DNA from: an uncultured bacterium
Lineage (GTDB): Bacteria; Patescibacteriota; Minisyncoccia; Phycocordibacterales; PALSA-1337
DNA length: 59,756 nucleotides
Direction: 5' to 3'
Assembly: GCA_903839725.1 (NCBI GenBank)
Contig: CAIMDG010000001.1
Span: 173,559-233,314, forward strand
Part shown: in pieces, positions 607-49,345 of the stretch
Layout of the letters: every line of letters begins with the position of its first letter
Position numbering within the stretch: position 1 is the stretch's first letter
The notes under the pieces: generated by a model
Told to the model about the DNA's origin: nothing
What the model saw: only the letters and a program-made list of their open reading frames with translations
The model's database searches: none
Made by a program: the position numbers and the translations under genes

Positions 607-1881
607 TTAGACAGGAAGATTACTTGGTGCGCCAGATTTCTTTGAAGGAATACGTGTGAGACCTGGTGTTCCTGAAACTGAGCCTGGGAAGTGATATACA
701 GTTGCTAGTTCCTCAACGTTGAGCACCAAGGGCTTTGCTTTGTATGGCTCATAAAAATATGAACGGCGTTTGTAAGCAGCGAGGCCTCGTCTTCCAAATT
801 TGTTTCTACGTATATTGTTGTAATCTTGCCACGGATAGGTCAATTGTGGGTGCCATTTATTACCATTAGGCTTAAAACCATTCAAATGCTCATAACGGTA
901 GTGTCCAAACGAAGAAATAACGCCCCCAACTCCAAATGGAGTGTCAAAAGATTCTTTCGGCGCAATATACAGAGCACGAATACCCACATCAAATGGAGTT
1001 TTCGATATACTACGTTCAAGAGCGGCAACAATTTCTTGTTCACCTTTGGTAATAGTAGGCAGTTTTGAATATCCAGTATCAGGATTGACTTCGCCGGCAA
1101 CTTTGGTCTTTTTGTCACGAAGTAATATTTTGTTAACTTCAGCTTCAGCTTGGTCTTTCCACAAATCTGTTTGCTTGAATAGGTGTCCTGGTTTACGCTG
1201 TTCTTTTTTGTGTCCACGAATCATGAACTGAATCCAGACTTGTTGATTCGGTGGTACACTTCCCAAAAATTCAATCATTGGCGTCATAGGATCAACTTTG
1301 AATTCTTCCTTAGGGTCTTTGTCGAGACCATAGTCAACGTAGGTTTTGATCGGATATGGATCAGCTTTGGTAAATACGAATTCACCGCACCATATACGAA
1401 TTTTCTTGGGATCAAAATGCAGACCCTTGGTATAGTCTTCACGCTCAATGATTTCTATTTCAGGATACTGTGAATACAAGCCAGACATAACGCCGGCCTT
1501 ACGACGGTCTTCTGTCCATATGAAAAATTTGACTTGTCCTTCAACAGAAATAAGTTCAAGCGAATACCATGGTCGCGTCTCACCTTTCCAATACATTGAA
1601 TACCAATTTTCTCCTGAAATGTTATGAAGAGATGTCAAAAATAGTTCCATCGCCAAAGGAGACTTGAATGTATCTTTTGGTAGTTTGAGTTCGAGAACGG
1701 TATATTTGAGCGAGAGGAATTGTTTTGACTGTACGTATTGAACCCAGACATACCAAAATATTTCAGCAAGAATAATAACAATTACAATGGGAGAAAAAAA
1801 TATTACATAATGTAACACTTCAGGCCCTATCAATGTTTTGAGTTCTGGAAAGAGTGCGTAAAATAGAGCTTCAATAGTCAT
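607..1881 (-). CDS. Hypothetical membrane-anchored protein (N-terminal TM helices, large soluble domain)
   Basis: 424-aa ORF. Hydrophobic N-terminus (VIFFSPIVIVIILAEIFWYVWV). Stop is 5 nt before the mltG start, so probably co-transcribed. No family recognised. Confidence 0.6.
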   Translation of the reverse strand: MTIEALFYALFPELKTLIGPEVLHYVIFFSPIVIVIILAEIFWYVWVQYVQSKQFLSLKYTVLELKLPKDTFKSPLAMELFLTSLHNISGENWYSMYWKGETRPWYSLELISVEGQVKFFIWTEDRRKAGVMSGLYSQYPEIEIIEREDYTKGLHFDPKKIRIWCGEFVFTKADPYPIKTYVDYGLDKDPKEEFKVDPMTPMIEFLGSVPPNQQVWIQFMIRGHKKEQRKPGHLFKQTDLWKDQAEAEVNKILLRDKKTKVAGEVNPDTGYSKLPTITKGEQEIVAALERSISKTPFDVGIRALYIAPKESFDTPFGVGGVISSFGHYRYEHLNGFKPNGNKWHPQLTYPWQDYNNIRRNKFGRRGLAAYKRRSYFYEPYKAKPLVLNVEELATVYHFPGSVSGTPGLTRIPSKKSGAPSNLPV

Positions 1882-1904
1882 GAGCTAATTATAGCAGTAC
1901 ATAG

Positions 1905-1947
1905 CATAAAAGTTAAAGTCCAGAAGAGTGAACTTCTGGACTTTAAC
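1905..1947 (-). terminator. Rho-independent terminator after the sigma-like HTH gene
   Basis: Perfect 15-bp stem (gttaaagtccagaag / cttctggactttaac) with a 6-nt loop, followed on the minus strand by a T run. Confidence 0.7.
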
Positions 1948-1966
1948 GTAGGCTTTATTGTTGAGA

Positions 1967-3001
1967 TTATGCTGCACTATACTTTCCTTCTTTGTCTTTC
2001 TTAAAATATTTTGGATTCTGAAGATTGACGATGATGGTATTTTCTTTGACGTAACGTTCCTTCATAACCTTGTCGATGATTTCATCTTTGGTAAGAGGGT
2101 TGTTCTTTGAAATGACTGAACGGATAACATCACGTACAACACCAGGAGCATATCCCCATTCTGCGAGGGCGTAGAGACCGCGACCAACGAGAACGAAACG
2201 AGGATCCTTGATGAGTTCGTTGTGGGTCGTAGCTACGTGAGCCTTTTTGTTAAAGAGAACTGTAATCTGTTTTGCAACATCTCTAAAGTGAATTGGTGAT
2301 CCATGCTTGCGGATAACGAGGAATGCATAGTCACGCATACCCTTAGTCTTGATGTTTGAAGAATCTGCAACTCCCCAATCTCCAAGAGCATTCTTGCCGA
2401 TAGATTTTGATATTGCCAACCAACGCTTCACGACTTCTTGGTTTTTGTAACGTTCTGATACATCTTCGAGATGCTCGAGGAACTTTGAAACCATTTCTGA
2501 TTCAGGAAGTAATTGCTGATTGTCGAGGTGTGCGTACAATTTACGGAGAGCATCTTCAACTTGCTTTGAGAGAGCTTCATTCACATGCCAACGATGACGG
2601 AAATCATCATCTTCTTTGAATTTCTTGAATGGTTCACCAACAACCAAAAGGAAGTGAACATGATTCTGGAGACTCTTATCCTTTGACACATGGCCAAGGA
2701 AATCATCTTCAACAACAATACCACCGAGAGAGTGGAGGAGAGTTTCTATTTCTGTAAATGCAGCCTTTTCTTGTTTGTATTCTTCAGATTTTCGAACATT
2801 GGCAATGCCATAGTTCTCGATCTGGCGAACACGCTCGCGAGTAATGCCATACTTCTTGCCGATAGCATCCAAGGTCATGCGCTTGGTATCTGTACCGAGA
2901 CCATAGCGAAACACAAGGACTTCACGTGCACGATCAGGCAAAGACGACAAAAGACGCTTTACGGTTTGTTTTGGTTTAAATGAAATAGAAGCGGTTGCCA
3001 T
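1967..3001 (-). CDS. Sigma-70 region-4-like HTH DNA-binding protein
   Basis: The N-terminus (LPDRAREVLVFRYGL...MTLDAIGKKYGITRERVRQIE) matches the sigma-70 region 4 HTH pattern. The long C-terminal domain is unassigned. Confidence 0.7.
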   Translation of the reverse strand: MATASISFKPKQTVKRLLSSLPDRAREVLVFRYGLGTDTKRMTLDAIGKKYGITRERVRQIENYGIANVRKSEEYKQEKAAFTEIETLLHSLGGIVVEDDFLGHVSKDKSLQNHVHFLLVVGEPFKKFKEDDDFRHRWHVNEALSKQVEDALRKLYAHLDNQQLLPESEMVSKFLEHLEDVSERYKNQEVVKRWLAISKSIGKNALGDWGVADSSNIKTKGMRDYAFLVIRKHGSPIHFRDVAKQITVLFNKKAHVATTHNELIKDPRFVLVGRGLYALAEWGYAPGVVRDVIRSVISKNNPLTKDEIIDKVMKERYVKENTIIVNLQNPKYFKKDKEGKYSAA

Positions 3002-3137
3002 ATGATTATTAATGACTATTAGTATAGTTACGTTTTATCATCTTCTTGTAGTAAAGTCAATCTTGTGGGGATATCCTGTACTTACTCTTATAATTACTGT
3101 GTGAATACACTACCACTAATGTGGTATAATTGTCAAA

Positions 3138-6083
3138 TTACACCACAACTATGTTAACGAGTCGTTTTGGAACGACGATAACTTTGACAACTTTTTTACC
3201 CTCAATCCACTTTTGAGTTTCTGGTAAACTTTTTGCCTTGAGTTCAAGATCTGCATTGCTACAATCGGTGGCTACTACAAAGGATCCCCTGACTTTTCCA
3301 TTCACCTGAACAATGATGGTAATTTCAGTATCAATGACTTGGGCTGGGTCATATTTGGGCCACGTAGAGACATGAATGGACTTCTTATTCCCGAGAGAGA
3401 TCCATAGCTCCTCAGTTGCATGTGGTGCAAATGGTGCCAAGAGCTTGAGTATAGATTCATAGTGTTCACGTGCTATAGAACTATTCGCATCAATTTCATT
3501 GATTGCAATCATAAGTGCACTAATGGCAGTGTTGAAACGAAGCCCTTGAATATCATCAGTAACTTTTTTTATTGCACGATGAACACTCTTTGTTATCGCC
3601 AAATTTGTTGTTGGTGTGGTTCCATTTTCATCAATTTTTTCTCTGAGTTTCCAAACCTTCTCTATAAATCGGCGACTACCGACCATGCTCGATGTACTCC
3701 ACGCTATCTGTTGTTCAAATGGACCCATAAACATTTCATACAGACGCAATGTATCAGCTCCATATGTCGCAACGATATCATCGGGGTTAACTACGTTGCC
3801 ATAGCGCTTCCCCATCTTCCTGCCATCTTCACCCATGATGAGTCCGACACTCTGTAATTTTTTGAATGGTTCGATGGTTGACACAACGCCTATGTCAAAC
3901 AAGAACTTATGCCAGAAACGTGCATAGATGAGGTGACGCGTTGCATGTTCTGCACCACCTATGTAGAGATCGACTGGTGACCAGTACTTTTCATTCTTGG
4001 CACTAACGAGAGCTTTTGTATTTTTTGCGTCCATATAGCGGAGGTAATACCACGATGAACCAGCCCACTGAGGCATCGTATTTGTTTCGCGCTTTGCTTT
4101 GCCTTTGCATTGTGGACATTTTACATTGACCCACTTTGTAATAGCCACCAAAGGAGATTCTCCTGTGCCAGTTGGTTCGTACGAAGTCACTTTCGGTAAT
4201 TTCACCGGAAGATCCTTCTCAGGAACTGCCACAACTCCACATTTCTCGCAGTGAATGAGTGGCATTGGCTCTCCCCAGTAGCGCTGACGTGAGAATACCC
4301 AATCTCGGAGTTTATATGTTGTCTTTAAACTACCTCCAGCGTATTCCGTAATAGAACGTTTTACTTCAGCAGAAGTTTTTCCATCGAATGATCCTGAGTT
4401 TATGAGCATGCCATAGTCTGTAAATGCATCTGCGTTTCCCTTGAATCGCTCCCAGAATATAGGATTGAATGGTCGACCTGCAAGATAGGTGCCTATTTCA
4501 TCTTCTGAAAGCCATATGGTTTCGTGGAGCTTCTTTTCTTCTTCTGAAATTTCAACATGATCTCCATCTATTAACTCAAAATACAACGGATGCAACAGTG
4601 CCATACGGTTTTGATTTCCATTCTTGGAATAATAACGATATACGACAGGATTACCCAACGATTTTACGAATCGAGCATTCTTGTAACCCGTCTCTTCGAG
4701 AATTTCTCGCATACCTGCCTTTTCGTATGACTCATCACCATCAACTCCTCCAGCTACACCAACAACGATGTCTTTACCGAGATCAGCAAGGCCTTTTTTA
4801 TTCAAGAATAAATATTTATTTTCTGACCAATGTTTTATGATGCATACAACTGTAGGACGAATAACTTCAGGCTCATTCGATCTCCACGCATCACTCGAAT
4901 ATTCACTCACAAATAACGGTGCAATCACTTCTTTGATCGGCAATTTGAACTTTTTTGCAAAAGCCCAATCACGTTCGTCATGTGCAGGAACAGCCATAAC
5001 CGCACCAGTACCATAATCAGCGAGTACATAATCAGAAATCCATACAGGGATCTCTGCTTTATTGACGGGATTGATAACCTTGATACCCTTAAGCTCAACA
5101 CCAGTTTTATCCTTCTTGGCATCAGTACGCTCAATCTCTGTCTCAAGCTTGGCTTTTGAAATGTACTCTTCAACTTCTCCTCTATTTAAAACAGTAGAAA
5201 GTAATTCCTGTACTAATGTGTGTTCAGGTGCGAGTACAACATACGTGACACCAAATAAGGTATCAGGTCGGGTCGAAAACACTTCAACATTTCTTTGTGT
5301 ATTACTTGATTCTTTAGAATTTGATATTTGAAATTGTATCAACGCTCCTTCACTCTTACCTATCCAATTTCGCTGAGACTCTTTGATAGCCTCAGGCCAA
5401 TCAAGAATACTTTTGTCGTTTGCTTTTGCATCCAAATCATTCAATAGTCTATCTGCGTAATCGGTAATTTTAAGCACCCACTGACGAAGTGGTTTCTTCT
5501 CAACTGGAGTGCCACAGCGCTCACAGCGCCCATCTTCGAGATCTTCGTTAGCCAAGCCAGTCTTACATGATGGACACCAGTTAATAGGCTCGAATGATTG
5601 GTACGCCAAGCCTTTCTTGAATAACTGCAAGAATATCCATTGAGTCCAACGATAGTACGCGGGATCTGTCGTGTTAATTTCTCGTGACCAATCATAGTCA
5701 AAACCTAAAATTTCCAATTGTTTCTTGTATCGAGCAACGTTTTTCTTTACGCCAATTTCAGGATGAGTCTGTGTTTTGAGTGCATAATTTTCTGCAGGAA
5801 GTCCGAAGGCGTCAAATCCCATGGGATGTAAAACGGACTTTCCATTCATGCGCTGAAAACGAGAAACAATGTCAGTTGCAATATATCCCTTGGGATGACC
5901 GACGTGAAGTCCTTCTCCTGAAGGATATGGGAACATGTCGAGTACATAAAATTTCTCCTTTCGGGAATCTTCTTTCGTTTTGTATATTTTCTTACTTGTC
6001 CATTTTTTCTGCCACTTGTTTTCTATTGCAGCTGGGTCATAGGCTGGAAATGCCTTAAGTTTCTTTTTCATAGGATGAATCAT
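3138..6083 (-). CDS. leuS: Leucyl-tRNA synthetase with an inserted Nudix domain
   Basis: Class I motifs HVGHPKGY (HIGH) and KMGKRYGN (KMSKS) are present, plus RDWVFSRQRYWGEP and the CP1 editing region. At 981 aa it is longer than typical because of the insert at aa 388-555. Confidence 0.95.
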   Translation of the reverse strand: MIHPMKKKLKAFPAYDPAAIENKWQKKWTSKKIYKTKEDSRKEKFYVLDMFPYPSGEGLHVGHPKGYIATDIVSRFQRMNGKSVLHPMGFDAFGLPAENYALKTQTHPEIGVKKNVARYKKQLEILGFDYDWSREINTTDPAYYRWTQWIFLQLFKKGLAYQSFEPINWCPSCKTGLANEDLEDGRCERCGTPVEKKPLRQWVLKITDYADRLLNDLDAKANDKSILDWPEAIKESQRNWIGKSEGALIQFQISNSKESSNTQRNVEVFSTRPDTLFGVTYVVLAPEHTLVQELLSTVLNRGEVEEYISKAKLETEIERTDAKKDKTGVELKGIKVINPVNKAEIPVWISDYVLADYGTGAVMAVPAHDERDWAFAKKFKLPIKEVIAPLFVSEYSSDAWRSNEPEVIRPTVVCIIKHWSENKYLFLNKKGLADLGKDIVVGVAGGVDGDESYEKAGMREILEETGYKNARFVKSLGNPVVYRYYSKNGNQNRMALLHPLYFELIDGDHVEISEEEKKLHETIWLSEDEIGTYLAGRPFNPIFWERFKGNADAFTDYGMLINSGSFDGKTSAEVKRSITEYAGGSLKTTYKLRDWVFSRQRYWGEPMPLIHCEKCGVVAVPEKDLPVKLPKVTSYEPTGTGESPLVAITKWVNVKCPQCKGKAKRETNTMPQWAGSSWYYLRYMDAKNTKALVSAKNEKYWSPVDLYIGGAEHATRHLIYARFWHKFLFDIGVVSTIEPFKKLQSVGLIMGEDGRKMGKRYGNVVNPDDIVATYGADTLRLYEMFMGPFEQQIAWSTSSMVGSRRFIEKVWKLREKIDENGTTPTTNLAITKSVHRAIKKVTDDIQGLRFNTAISALMIAINEIDANSSIAREHYESILKLLAPFAPHATEELWISLGNKKSIHVSTWPKYDPAQVIDTEITIIVQVNGKVRGSFVVATDCSNADLELKAKSLPETQKWIEGKKVVKVIVVPKRLVNIVVV

Positions 6084-6926: not shown

Positions 6927-7097
6927 AATTTATACGTATTTGACTACTATGCCCTACTCAAGTACTGTTCGGAACGGAAGACGCCTCACGATGCAGGCCT
7001 TTTTGCAGAACAAAGACATGAAGTGTCATGACTCCTGGTGGCCCGCAGTTTCGGCCAAGGCTTGGCTTAGGTCAAGGTGCCACTTTGTGGCTGCAAA

Positions 7098-7142
7098 CCC
7101 CGTTCCAATAGATCTGAGGATCTGGAGCGGGGCCACTTTTTT
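7098..7142 (+). terminator. Compound stem-loop with T6 (terminator, possibly bidirectional)
   Basis: Outer stem ccccgttcc / ggagcgggg encloses inner stem agatc / gatct, followed by ccac and tttttt. Confidence 0.6.
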
Positions 7143-7323
7143 ACCTAAATCCTAAACTCTATAACAGTACCATCTTCTCAACAAGTTGGGCTTATTGTCA
7201 AAATAGCCCTATAATCCTTGAGATTCGTCGATTTGCCCGTCTATTAAGCCCACAAATGCCATTTTACGGCCTTAATAGGCGAGCAACTCTTTTTTGTTAA
7301 TTTTCAAAATGCTTACAACAAGG

Positions 7324-7332
7324 ATTATACCA
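7324..7332 (-). promoter_or_regulatory. Extended -10 promoter element TGGTATAAT
   Basis: The reverse complement reads TGGTATAAT. Identical 11-nt context (attataccaag) to the copy at 7494-7502. Confidence 0.35.
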
Positions 7333-7340
7333 AGCGGTTG

Positions 7341-7487
7341 TTACATAGCAAGCTCCTTTGGCTTGTGTTTTCCCCACCTCACTTTTGCAGCCAAACGACC
7401 AATAGTCTGGTAGTGTTTCTTACCATACTTTTTCTTGGTCTTTTGACCACCCTTTTTTCCGAGCGCTTGTGCGGCCTTGTTCTTCAC
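7341..7487 (-). CDS. Possible 48-aa lysine-rich small protein (KGG-type tail ending in RW)
   Basis: GTG start 6 nt after an extended -10. Sequence KNKAAQALGKKGGQKTKKKYGKKHYQTIGRLAAKVRWGKH resembles small basic proteins common in mobile elements. No ATG start. Confidence 0.35.
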   Translation of the reverse strand: MKNKAAQALGKKGGQKTKKKYGKKHYQTIGRLAAKVRWGKHKPKELAM

Positions 7488-7493
7488 CAGGTA

Positions 7494-7502
7494 ATTATAC
7501 CA
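7494..7502 (-). promoter_or_regulatory. Extended -10 promoter element TGGTATAAT
   Basis: The reverse complement reads TGGTATAAT, directly upstream of the small basic ORF. Confidence 0.35.
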
Positions 7503-7525
7503 AGTGCTTACTATTTACGAAAGGC

Positions 7526-8443
7526 CTATTTTCCTCTAAATTTGCGATATCTTTGTTCAGCCTGTTTTCCGTACATCATGGTGTAAACCATTGAGCTCTC
7601 AATGCAGGAGTGGCCGAGGATATTTGTGACATCTGAGTTCGATCCTCCTTTTTCTATGATATTTCTACCCATATAGTGTCTCATTGAGTGAGCATTCATA
7701 TTCTTCTCAAGACCTGCTTTATTTGAATATCCTCGCAGCATTTCACAGACGCCACTTTGTTTGAATCTGTATCCTCTGGTTTTGTTTGCTCCAGAGTTAT
7801 GGATTGATATAAATAATGCATTAGGATCACGCAGGACATTTCCACGCTTGAATCGCTCCCGACGTTCTATCCATTTCTGAATCGCCTTGCTTGTTTCTTC
7901 AGTCCAGAAAATTTCTCGTAATGGTCTGCGAGTTTTTGCTTTCTCAGTCTTAATCAATGCTTTGTTGTTTACAAGATCGAGATCATCCATGTCGAGTGCC
8001 ATAATTTCTCCATTTCTCGCACCTGTATCCCAGAGCAATCTGACAATCGCCTCGTTTCTTACATTTCTAGGATCAGTATTTTGAGGGATGACACTGAGCA
8101 ATTTCTTGTACTCCTCTTGAGTCGCAACTCGAGGTATCTTGTATTCCTTCTGAGGAATCGGTATAAGGTTTTCGTTGAGGACCCTCCACCCTCTCAAATT
8201 GCAAAATTCAAAAAACTTTTTATATGCCATACATTTTGAGACGAAGCTATTGTGTGACCATCCGATCTCTTTCATTAAATTCAAATATTCCATCATGTTG
8301 TTTAACGTGATGTCTTCAATCTGTGGGTTACGCAAAAATAGGCAAAAAAGACGAAGGTCTTTGTCATTGCCTCTGGTGGTAGTGCCGTTTATCTTAAACG
8401 TGCGCCAATTTGTAAATTCATCTATAGCATCTTTGAATAGCAT
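7526..8443 (-). CDS. Tyrosine recombinase / phage-type integrase (XerC/D-like)
   Basis: Carries WDTGARNGE (catalytic Arg), HSMRH, LGH and a C-terminal Tyr (VYTMMY). The track ORF starts at a TTG (8479); the ATG at 8443 (MLFKDAIDEF) is preferred. Confidence 0.85.
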   Translation of the reverse strand: MLFKDAIDEFTNWRTFKINGTTTRGNDKDLRLFCLFLRNPQIEDITLNNMMEYLNLMKEIGWSHNSFVSKCMAYKKFFEFCNLRGWRVLNENLIPIPQKEYKIPRVATQEEYKKLLSVIPQNTDPRNVRNEAIVRLLWDTGARNGEIMALDMDDLDLVNNKALIKTEKAKTRRPLREIFWTEETSKAIQKWIERRERFKRGNVLRDPNALFISIHNSGANKTRGYRFKQSGVCEMLRGYSNKAGLEKNMNAHSMRHYMGRNIIEKGGSNSDVTNILGHSCIESSMVYTMMYGKQAEQRYRKFRGK

Positions 8444-8456
8444 ATCAGTCAACCAA

Positions 8457-8489
8457 AAAGTCCACTCGATGCTAGTCAAAGTGGACTTT
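8457..8489. terminator. 10-bp stem-loop flanked by A and T runs at the integrase 5' end
   Basis: Stem aaagtccact / agtggacttt with a 13-nt loop. T runs follow on both strands. Confidence 0.5.
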
Positions 8490-17618: not shown

Positions 17619-18047
17619 TTATAAGTACTCCTTGTATAGTTTTATAAAATTAGGAAATTGTGAATGTAATGGTGACGGAAGATTGTCAAGGGTGAACCAT
17701 TCTACGGCATCAAACTTGTGTGGTTCACCATTTGCGACCTTGTCTGGATCAATTAAGACTTTGAAATCGAGAGCAATCCAATGCGTTTTCTTTCCTGCGT
17801 TTTCTCGATGAACATCTCTATAACCTAGGAATTCAAAACTAAGAACATCTGTGCAATATTCTTCAGCAATTTCTTTTTTAAGGGTATTAATGACTGAGTC
17901 ATTGAGTTCGATACCACCTCCCCCAGGGTCCCATGTTCCTTGTTCATCGCGGCAATTCTGACTTCTTTTATTTAATAGAAAATTTCCCTTGCCATCATGA
18001 CAAAAATAAACTACTGCATTACCGATATAGTCGACTCCTTTTTGCAT
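17619..18047 (-). CDS. Nudix hydrolase
   Basis: Nudix box GGGIELNDSVINTLKKEIAEEYCTDV. Confidence 0.85.
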   Translation of the reverse strand: MQKGVDYIGNAVVYFCHDGKGNFLLNKRSQNCRDEQGTWDPGGGGIELNDSVINTLKKEIAEEYCTDVLSFEFLGYRDVHRENAGKKTHWIALDFKVLIDPDKVANGEPHKFDAVEWFTLDNLPSPLHSQFPNFIKLYKEYL

Positions 18048-48937: not shown

Positions 48938-49345
48938 TTATTTCAGCAATCCTTTACTCAAAATCTCAGCAACGTATATATCCAAGTCTTCTTGAGATTT
49001 CATGTCTTGAAGGCTGAGCCACTTATATTCAACATTCTCAGTTGTATCCAAGACGGGTTCTCCAGTTGTATTCCCAATATAGGAAAGTCGAACAACATGC
49101 TTTTCAGCATTTGGAATAATATCTTGTGCATGTATTAATACCGGCTCAGACATAATTTCTAGCTGAGTTTCTTCCTTAACTTCACGCTTCAAATTCTCAA
49201 TCAATTTTGATCCTGGTTCTATACGACCACCAACAATATCCCAATTTCCTTTGGTACCCTTGTATTTATCTGTAGAACGTTTGACGAGTAGGTACTTACC
49301 CTCTGTATTCTTCAAAAATATTTTAACTCCGACTTGTAGAATCAT
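48938..49345 (-). CDS. Nudix hydrolase
   Basis: Nudix box GGRIEPGSKLIENLKREVKEETQLEI. Confidence 0.85.
   Translation of the reverse strand: MILQVGVKIFLKNTEGKYLLVKRSTDKYKGTKGNWDIVGGRIEPGSKLIENLKREVKEETQLEIMSEPVLIHAQDIIPNAEKHVVRLSYIGNTTGEPVLDTTENVEYKWLSLQDMKSQEDLDIYVAEILSKGLLK

Follow-up and report, generated by a model that had tools for sequence, protein, structure and literature searches.

Why would a leucyl-tRNA synthetase (LeuRS) carry a complete Nudix hydrolase inside its own editing domain, and what would this second enzyme do there? The question is raised by a leuS gene found in a stretch of 59,756 nucleotides (nt) of DNA from an uncultured bacterium of the Patescibacteriota (assembly GCA_903839725.1, contig CAIMDG010000001.1), the whole of which is called the window below. 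In this gene, 169 residues forming a Nudix domain interrupt the CP1 editing domain of an otherwise intact LeuRS. An original prediction, made from the letters of the DNA, had proposed a complete in-frame Nudix domain at this place. The present analysis bears it out, with a Pfam score above threshold and an intact Nudix box, and examines the spread, the evolution and the possible function of the inserted domain.

The leuS gene occupies positions 3138..6083 on the minus strand, and is listed as a single uninterrupted open reading frame (ORF) that encodes a bacterial-type LeuRS of 981 residues. The insert extends over residues 388-556 (4416..4922, minus strand), as supported by Pfam PF00293, AlphaFold2 (AF2) modelling, Foldseek and alignment, and it occupies a hairpin loop of CP1, hereafter site B. 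The predicted end of the insert, 4922, was right; the predicted start, 4419, had missed one codon. KFKLPIKEVI (residues 378-387) precedes the insert and YGMLINSGSFDG (residues 557-568) follows it. Alignment to Thermus thermophilus LeuRS, a comparison of the kind suggested along with the prediction, places the insertion point at residues 363/376 of that enzyme, inside the editing domain, and the insert is spread across Paceibacteria/Parcubacteria genomes. The loop of the T. thermophilus enzyme has 12 residues, and insert-free relatives have about 10-20 residues at site B.

Pfam family PF00293 matches residues 442-536 with 31.6 bits, above the gathering cut-off of 21.1 (E 1.9e-7). The Nudix box, GGVDGDESYEKAGMREILEETGY, lies at residues 445-467, that is at 4683..4751 on the minus strand, exactly where it had been predicted. 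On direct reading, every position of GX5EX7REUXEEXGU is satisfied, with E451, R459, E460, E463 and E464 as catalytic residues. This box is the sole strict match to GX5EX7REUXEEXG in the six-frame translation of the window, and 0 of 200 shuffles contained a match. An AF2 model of the insert alone, built with 20 homologous inserts, shows the expected order of Nudix strands and helices, with a predicted local distance difference test score (pLDDT) of 93.1 and a predicted template-modelling score (pTM) of 0.88. When this model was compared with the PDB using Foldseek, 540 matches were obtained at E <= 1e-3; each of the 50 listed matches is a Nudix enzyme, with a probability of 1.0. The top matches comprise 2b0v, 2azw, E. 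coli RppH entries, a Thermus ADP-ribose pyrophosphatase and NudC, at template-modelling (TM) scores of about 0.5-0.6 and 15-22% sequence identity. The domain also has features of its own, namely the family-specific motifs KHWSE[DN]KYL and, about 20 residues past the box, NR, as well as an additional N-terminal strand. Its isoelectric point (pI) is 5.1 (family median 5.6), versus 9.1 for the LeuRS body. The insert is a complete Nudix pyrophosphohydrolase domain carried by a surface hairpin of CP1, CP1 being itself inserted in the Rossmann fold, and the nesting has three levels: Nudix within CP1 within the Rossmann fold. This identity and this architecture are almost certain. Because all catalytic residues are present, an active pyrophosphohydrolase would be the default reading of the insert.

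The protein that harbours this domain scores 1019.6 bits against the bacterial LeuRS equivalog model TIGR00396, well above the cut-off of 548.4. Pfam recognizes in it the class I catalytic domain, the editing domain PF13603, the anticodon-binding domain and the NUDIX domain. The PF13603 match (residues 238-390, E 3e-61) is broken off at profile position 143 of 185. The N-terminal three quarters of CP1 (profile positions 1-143) accordingly span residues 238-387 (4923..5372, minus strand), and the remainder, residues 557-595 (4299..4415, minus strand), begins with YGMLINSGSFDG, ends with YKLRDW and aligns to T. thermophilus LeuRS from residue 376. Both editing motifs are intact, the Thr-rich STRPDT at residues 270-275 (5259-5276, minus strand) and GTGAVMAVPAHDERD, of the GTG...HDERD type, at residues 358-372 (4968-5012, minus strand); their residues are invariant in an alignment of 41 LeuRS relatives. 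At the aminoacylation site, the HIGH signature reads HVGH (residues 60-63; 5895..5906, minus strand), and H60, G62 and H63 are invariant across the 41 aligned sequences. The KMSKS-type loop reads KMGKR (residues 756-760; 3804..3818, minus strand), a variant of the class I signature that retains both lysines; the clade consensus is KMSKR, and K756, M757, K759 and R760 are invariant in the 41 LeuRS. The prediction had described the frame as continuous and the HIGH, KMSKS and editing motifs as intact, and this description stands save for the KMGKR variant. An anticodon-binding-type helical domain follows at residues 830-939 (3267..3596, minus strand; PF08264, E 5e-22). The leucine-specific domain, which precedes KMSKS in the T. 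thermophilus (about residues 580-637) and E. coli enzymes, is absent from the window LeuRS and from its clade, as seen around residues 751-757 in the alignment to T. thermophilus LeuRS. A full-length AF2 model (pLDDT 80.5) is confident across the insert and the linkers and, outside the insert, superposes on LeuRS crystal structures with TM scores up to 0.71/0.80. The protein is intact in its synthetic and editing motifs, and it represents the bacterial-type housekeeping LeuRS of a member of the Patescibacteria (Paceibacteria/Parcubacteria-like).

Could such an architecture be an artefact? A chimeric assembly, two genes whose boundary is masked by a frameshift, or an intein-like element spliced out of the mature protein might be suspected from the unusual length of the protein and from the slightly lower GC content of the insert (0.38-0.40, versus 0.43-0.46 in the flanks). 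Against this, the frame is continuous, a protein identical to the window LeuRS is present on 13 contigs, and the same in-frame architecture recurs in many metagenomes as well as in about 72 genome assemblies independent of one another. Confidence in the full-length AF2 model, moreover, extends through the linkers. As for protein splicing, no Hint-family Pfam hit was obtained, and the junctions (KEVI/APLF and AFTD/YGML) are devoid of intein residues. The assembly artefact that had been envisaged as the way in which the prediction could fail was not found, and an artefact of any of these kinds is effectively refuted, with a negligible chance of being the explanation. A search of the insert borders for mobile-element repeats gave only a 21-nt imperfect inverted repeat and direct repeats at chance level. 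The arms of the inverted repeat (4383-4403 and 4861-4881) are 86% complementary; one lies just beyond the C-terminal border of the insert, the other within the insert at about 40 nt from the N-terminal border, and their pairing is probably due to chance. The idea of the insert as a mobile or spliced element was rejected on the grounds that its borders show no repeats beyond these and no intein features.

How widespread is the insert? The 120 best LeuRS matches to the full-length query, at 55-87% identity, were taken as the set of homologues; its named members are Patescibacteria, Paceibacterota, Parcubacteria and Taylorbacteria. At least one Nudix domain is present in 114 of the 120, and a site-B Nudix in 95, a figure inflated by the fact that the query itself carried Nudix. 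The box is perfect in 86 of these 95 site-B inserts. Genomes were also scanned, one per GTDB species, with patterns (C[IV][IV]KHWSE and similar) which, being derived from a six-sequence alignment, sample part of the family; 75 loci were retrieved, in which the match falls within leuS at site B (about 72 loci) or at site A (three). Among the names of these genomes are Taylor-, Nomura-, Kaiser-, Adler-, Vogel-, Jorgensen- and Zambryskibacteria as well as Paceibacterota. In the closest genome (L002, an uncultured bacterium), LeuRS shares with the window protein 82% of its core residues and 77% of those of the insert. The ratio of non-synonymous to synonymous substitution rates (dN/dS) between the two genomes is 0.16 for the insert and 0.07 for the core; the insert is therefore under purifying selection. 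The insert is common in Paceibacteria LeuRS and is not a singular oddity of the window gene, being one module of a set of hydrolase inserts that is rapidly reshuffled throughout the lineage. The prediction had named, as a finding that would count against it, a LeuRS module already known to be common and lacking a conserved Nudix box: the module is indeed common in the clade, but its box is conserved. An extreme rarity of the insert, at first suggested by a single match (P0001) in a word-indexed search, was discarded as a sensitivity artefact, HMMER and full-length searches having found many. Four loci encoding a bacterial-type LeuRS with Nudix (L012, L019, L029 and L044) bear putative labels of Woesearchaeota, Nanoarchaeota or Methanosarcinales. 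For L012 and L044, labelled Woesearchaeota/Nanoarchaeota, the neighbouring genes do not settle an archaeal origin.

The window protein has the site-B Nudix only, and its relatives offer a more varied picture. With an insert-free LeuRS of 810 residues (P0087) as a reference, five insertion sites, A to E, and 19 mosaic architectures are distinguished across the 120 homologues. Site A, just before CP1 at about position 221 of P0087, carries a single Nudix domain or a tandem pair (83 domains in all, of which 55 keep a perfect box), and site B, at positions 380-388, carries Nudix (95 domains, 86 with a perfect box). A Ser_hydrolase domain (PF06821) is found at site C, early in CP1, and at site D, position 450, and a HAD domain (PF13419) at site E, position 494, in a zinc module. 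The relatives with extra domains (P0003-P0121) are LeuRS of 930-1564 residues, some of which carry up to three Nudix domains spread over two sites. The box is degenerate (E to Q, R to A) in 9 of the 95 domains at site B and 28 of the 83 at site A, and degenerate copies usually share their protein with an intact one.

Nearest neighbours often differ in architecture. For instance, the insert-free P0107 and the site-B-bearing P0024 are 87% identical in their cores. Similarly, a metagenomic relative with 88.8% amino acid identity (L078) has a clean in-frame Nudix of 161 residues at site A, where the window protein has six residues; repeats flanking this insertion or deletion were looked for in the comparison of L078 with the window and were not found. 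Since close relatives do without it, the Nudix domain is probably not needed for aminoacylation or editing. The inserts share a mean identity of 32% versus 72% for the cores, the two being uncorrelated (Spearman -0.08), and the Nudix domains of sites A and B intermingle in clustering. This pattern points to repeated duplication, transfer between sites and loss, rather than to a single ancient insertion. Vertical co-evolution from one such insertion was considered and is not supported by the core/Nudix correlation, in a test of co-divergence that saturation limits. Beside these mosaics, a second LeuRS-like region without the CP1 part was seen just upstream of leuS at one locus (L021:122-2323).

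The family of the insert was also followed outside LeuRS. When 1.84 billion representatives were searched exhaustively with HMMER, using the profile of the insert, only 686 clusters were obtained at E <= 1e-3, of which 232 reach E <= 1e-10. Most of the best 150 of the 686 are LeuRS, whole or fragmentary, with a site-B domain; the 150 also comprise about 40 free-standing proteins of 154-206 residues, about ten proteins of about 280 residues and one prolyl-tRNA synthetase (ProRS). In the proteins of about 280 residues (P0001 at L001:5174-6007, P0124, P0128, P0132, P0133, P0142, P0144 and P0145), a degenerate C-terminal half of CP1 holds Nudix in the same loop as in LeuRS. The Nudix box is kept, and the Thr-rich region and the catalytic Asp of editing are lost. 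These mini-CP1 proteins look like partial duplicates of a LeuRS-Nudix gene. In the ProRS (P0245) and four related clusters (P0270-P0273), archaeal-type enzymes of 641-674 residues, a Nudix of the family stands between the anticodon-binding and C-terminal domains. The closest insert-free relatives of this ProRS are named Nanoarchaeota and Woesearchaeota, and it represents an independent capture of the insert family by a class II synthetase, possibly in DPANN archaea.

Six clusters of free-standing family members have an informative context, and in three of these the Nudix gene immediately precedes leuS, with gaps of 1-135 nt. P0149 is separated by 3 nt, on three contigs, from a leuS whose product has no insert at all; P0188, with a gap of 1 nt, and P0221, with a gap of about 135 nt on two contigs showing leuS, precede genes for LeuRS with the insert. 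The corresponding Nudix genes are at L081:3451-3936, L082:492-977, L083:639-1124, L090:3833-4324, L091:3476-3967 and on a JGI 3300071358 contig. In a Candidatus Doudnabacteria genome, a family Nudix lies 2.4 kb upstream of an insert-free leuS, within the series metG, unknown, tatD, family Nudix, unknown, HD/YfbR-like nucleotidase, unknown, a different Nudix and leuS without inserts (L053:410-8417); this free-standing copy has a degenerate box, GGLELGQ...AEIEEETGY. Other free-standing members adjoin HAD, CYTH or unrelated genes. A conserved pairing of Nudix with HAD was considered and dropped: the HAD encoded beside a free-standing family Nudix in L079 is not a close homologue of the site-E HAD of LeuRS. 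The window itself has, as predicted, two free-standing Nudix genes, both on the minus strand, at 17619-18047 (Pfam E 1.3e-11) and 48938-49345 (1.7e-17). They score 15 and 19 bits against the insert-family HMM, on which the insert scores 190, and so belong to other families. The operon form, the fusion at several sites and the existence of a second synthetase host make a Rosetta-stone argument for a functional tie of this Nudix family to synthetases, LeuRS above all. On these comparative grounds, a functional coupling of the inserted Nudix to LeuRS is probable.

What substrate could such a coupled enzyme act on? Among 20 inserts, NCBIfam models of RppH/NudH match 19, NudB 17, NudE 14 and YtkD 12. 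With the RppH/NudH models (PRK00714), the window insert obtains 23.3 bits for a cut-off of 116-118, which places it outside the equivalog; the best E-value among the 20 family members is 2.4e-8, and all are well under the cut-off. In the Foldseek comparison, RppH entries hold ranks 3-5 and 7-9, including the complex with diadenosine tetraphosphate (Ap4A) 7SP3; TM scores with E. coli RppH are 0.54-0.59, no better than with unrelated Nudix enzymes. In a profile search of the PDB, the Ap4A hydrolases 3i7u (E 5e-9) and 1f3y (E 5.6e-8) come second and fourth with partial coverage of the domain, and ADP-ribose pyrophosphatases score similarly. The acidic character of the insert favours a small-molecule substrate over direct binding of RNA. 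Aminoacyl-tRNA synthetases are the classic source of ApnN dinucleotides and p4A, and RppH/NudH is a Nudix hydrolase of Ap4A and Ap5A (PMC7705103).

Taken together, the best overall explanation would be an accessory Nudix tied to LeuRS and acting on by-products of the diadenosine polyphosphate (ApnA) type, although the balance leans slightly against its being right as a whole. In this model, the Nudix would be an autonomous accessory enzyme, dispensable for aminoacylation and editing, and the fusion would fix a 1:1 stoichiometry and a proximity already approximated by the operon form. The substrate would be a nucleoside-diphosphate-linked by-product of the adenylate chemistry shared by synthetases, most likely a dinucleoside or adenosine polyphosphate such as Ap3A, Ap4A, Ap5A or p4A. 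It would be cleaved to AMP/ATP at the source, in a cell with very limited nucleotide metabolism. Taken by itself, an ApnA-type substrate is possible but rather doubtful. Such a substrate, already put forward in the original prediction, is compatible with the weak nearest relatives of the domain (RppH/NudH and Nudix Ap4A hydrolases) and with the repeated association of the family with synthetases. The removal of mis-activated adenylates, proposed at the same time, fares less well. Nudix substrates are nucleoside-diphosphate-X compounds and aminoacyl-adenylates are acyl-phosphate anhydrides; because adenylates have no pyrophosphate bond, their hydrolysis by a Nudix enzyme is chemically unlikely.

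Several points weigh against the ApnA explanation. The similarities to characterised Nudix enzymes are all weak (23 bits versus 116 for RppH, TM scores of 0.55-0.6, 15-22% identity), and NudB, NudE, ADP-ribose pyrophosphatase and NudC score nearly equally, so that no substrate class is singled out. LeuRS is a modest Ap4A producer among the synthetases, and a general Ap4A scavenger would not obviously require a coupling specific to LeuRS. The inserts evolve fast and their identities do not follow those of the cores; several Nudix copies have degenerate boxes, and some of these may be non-catalytic. The inflated site-B count is to be borne in mind here as well.

Considering these points, several other functions may be envisaged. 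The Nudix could be a generic house-cleaning or salvage enzyme without mechanistic coupling to LeuRS, acting on ADP-ribose, NDP-sugars, damaged (d)NTPs, NADH or CoA. It would then be fused or co-transcribed only because leuS is constitutive and essential in a very small genome and because CP1 loops tolerate insertions. The presence in relatives' LeuRS of other typical house-cleaning domains (Ser_hydrolase PF06821 and HAD PF13419) would agree with this, as would the HAD, CYTH, HD-nucleotidase and other Nudix genes that adjoin free-standing members, the almost equal scores of ADP-ribose pyrophosphatases, NudE, NudB and RppH, the acidity of the domain, and the gain and loss of inserts between close relatives. 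But the family is narrow, with 686 clusters whose ties are overwhelmingly to LeuRS; at least three separate entries into synthetases can be counted (at two sites of LeuRS, and in ProRS), and a tight coupling to leuS at 1-3 nt recurs. The two ordinary free-standing Nudix genes of the window belong to different families, so the house-cleaning role is apparently covered elsewhere. This explanation is unlikely, while deserving attention. Doubts of another kind concern catalysis itself. The Nudix fold might serve as a ligand sensor or as a structural or interaction domain modulating LeuRS, its box being used for binding only. Degenerate boxes in 9 of 95 site-B domains, in 28 of 83 site-A domains and in the free-standing Doudnabacteria copy could be understood in this way, since degenerate copies persist and the fold would thus be valuable without full catalysis. 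Such a role is nevertheless very improbable for the window protein, which has every catalytic residue, as have 86 of the 95 site-B inserts; the dN/dS of 0.16 argues in the same direction, and degenerate copies are usually paired with an intact copy in the same protein.

Other functions would take LeuRS as a platform that binds tRNA or as a target to be protected. An RNA-end enzyme resembling RppH or NudC could act there on tRNA-Leu or its precursors, removing a 5'-triphosphate, Np4 or NAD caps, or a 3'-pyrophosphate left by a toxin, and the esterase and phosphatase domains co-inserted in relatives would complete an end-repair set. Of the characterised relatives, RppH indeed comes first both in the NCBIfam vote and in fold, and 12 of the 20 inserts are matched by YtkD; sites A, B and C are in CP1 or at its hinge, the domain that receives the 3' end of the tRNA; stand-alone proteins retain a remnant of CP1 around Nudix; and the mosaic turns over fast, as in conflict-driven systems. 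This function is hard to reconcile with an acidic domain (pI 5.1, family median 5.6), unlike the RNA-binding RppH, with mini-CP1 proteins in which the editing residues holding the CCA end (Thr-rich and Asp) are lost, and with an insertion in ProRS between the anticodon-binding and C-terminal domains, not obviously near the acceptor end. Scores with the RppH models are far under the family cut-off, and PADLOC gives no defence hit for the window insert; on the whole, an RNA-end function appears improbable. Even less probable is a built-in immunity, by which the Nudix, together with the Ser-hydrolase and HAD of relatives, would destroy nucleotide analogues that target LeuRS, for example adenylate mimics of the agrocin-84 type. 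The rapid reshuffling of cassettes (19 architectures for 120 homologues, with differing nearest neighbours) would fit such a role, and the NCBIfam model NF040702, an isoleucyl-tRNA synthetase (IleRS) with an N-acetyltransferase domain, shows that class I synthetases acquire accessory catalytic domains. The known LeuRS inhibitors of the agrocin-84 type are, however, phosphoramidates and not pyrophosphates, and the insert family also occurs in operon form beside an insert-free LeuRS. Here too PADLOC is silent: its defence models gave no hit for the window insert or for the esterase and HAD inserts, and two relatives had only a generic 26-bit Nudix hit. Finally, in a broader scheme, as improbable as the RNA-end function, Paceibacteria LeuRS would be a modular platform, a conflict-driven 'repair or immunity hub' instead of a simple house-cleaning device. 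Fast-evolving hydrolase cassettes (one to three Nudix, a serine esterase, a HAD phosphatase) would be swapped there between close relatives, at five fixed sites that tolerate insertion and lie in or near the editing domain and the zinc-binding modules. These cassettes would derive from a Nudix gene ancestrally in operon with leuS. Acting jointly on ligands bound to LeuRS, they might for example repair damaged or toxin-modified tRNA-Leu ends (3'-pyrophosphate, 3'-phosphate, N-acyl-aminoacyl esters) or destroy adenylate-mimic antibiotics. Should tRNA ends or antibiotics prove to be the targets of the cassettes, a quality-control or immunity function of a new kind would be built into a synthetase.

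The DNA around leuS also shows several features. Upstream of the gene, a block of about 165 nt (window ~6961-7143, minus strand, in the orientation of leuS) is 88% identical in four genomes, the other copies being at L028:2659-2827, L077:5640-5801 and L078:~991-1160, where the LeuRS proteins are far more diverged. The block has sharp conservation boundaries and an invariant run of 50 nt, CAGGAGTCATGACACTTCATGTCTTTGTTCTGCAAAAAGGCCTGCATC. Its predicted consensus fold is stable (-50 kcal/mol), with three pairs showing compensatory changes, and it lies 90-890 nt upstream of leuS across the genomes. No match to it was obtained in Rfam, with ARAGORN (tRNA/tmRNA) or in viral contigs. It may be regarded as a candidate for a structured RNA or for a leader of leuS. 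Adjoining it on the upstream side, 360 nt (7144-7504) are 77% identical to L050:8-370, the DNA immediately upstream of leuS in that case, and hold a very basic ORF of 48 residues (7341..7487, minus strand) beginning with MKNKAAQALGKKGGQKTKKKYGKKHYQTIGRLAAKVRWGK. Further upstream, the ORF at 7526..8479 (minus strand) is tyrosine recombinase-like by the appearance of its sequence. Downstream of leuS, a gene at 1967-3001 (minus strand) encodes a protein of 344 residues in which an N-terminal helix-turn-helix (HTH) resembling sigma-70 region 4 is recognized by eye. On the contig of a relative, leuS is likewise followed by the gene of a Sigma70_r4/HARE-HTH protein, which looks like conserved synteny. 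At another locus (L044:580-1068), the gene of a YbaK-like Cys-tRNA(Pro) deacylase abuts the start of a leuS encoding 1166 residues (1068-4568), with an AlaX/AlaRS-editing-like ORF nearby.

Has this architecture been described before? The original prediction knew of no described LeuRS-Nudix fusion, and full-text literature searches, whose coverage stops at subscription-only papers, found none. The sequences are public: automated pipelines already register PF00293 in such proteins, and JGI labels some of them 'leucyl-tRNA synthetase/FMN phosphatase'. The phenomenon itself appears to be undescribed. It provides a Rosetta-stone case linking an uncharacterised Nudix family to synthetase chemistry, and a testable route to the long-standing question of whether the ApnA made by synthetases is a by-product to be cleared at its source. 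It also offers natural permissive insertion sites in CP1, of use for engineering, and a warning for annotation pipelines, in which proteins of 950-1560 residues are labelled merely 'leucine--tRNA ligase'.

The comparison with known systems sets the window protein apart in several respects. With canonical bacterial LeuRS (T. thermophilus 1H3N/2BTE, E. coli 4AQ7/4ARC, Neisseria gonorrhoeae 7NU3), it shares 33-36% identity, TM scores up to 0.71/0.80, and, in the same order, the Rossmann core, the HIGH and KMSKS-type loops, a CP1 with Thr-rich, GTG and HDxRD motifs, and the anticodon-binding helical and C-terminal domains. It differs from them by a Nudix of 169 residues in place of the 12-residue loop of T. 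thermophilus (363/376), by the lack of the leucine-specific domain and by KMGKR for KMSKS. With RppH/NudH (YgdP, IalA) and the Ap4A hydrolases of Aquifex aeolicus (3I7U) and lupin (1F3Y), the insert has in common the Nudix fold and the full box, but it is remote from them (TM about 0.58, 17-19% identity), acidic rather than basic, and embedded rather than free-standing. A parallel to the fusion itself is NF040702, 'isoleucine--tRNA ligase, N-acetyltransferase domain-containing', which, going by the name of the model, likewise joins a class Ia synthetase to an unrelated small-molecule enzyme domain. There, the accessory domain is a GNAT and the host another synthetase, whereas the domain of the window protein is a Nudix, nested within the editing domain and belonging to a set of up to five interchangeable hydrolase inserts. 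A survey of domain insertions (Protein Sci 2026) describes PF13603 as insertion-exclusive in tRNA-synthetase hosts, with 'zero instances of host function' (PMC13114784). Here, PF13603 hosts a Nudix, and in relatives also a serine hydrolase; Paceibacteria LeuRS is therefore a counter-example; in a group of enzymes that rank among the most conserved, an entire radiation of ultra-small bacteria departs from the view of the editing domain as a pure insert never hosting others. Finally, the animal LysRS-Ap4A-NUDT2/HINT1 axis shows the same pairing of a synthetase that makes Ap4A with a Nudix that removes it (PMC7705103). In that axis the partners are separate proteins engaged in signalling, whereas the bacterial LeuRS and Nudix are fused or encoded in an operon, with no signalling role indicated.

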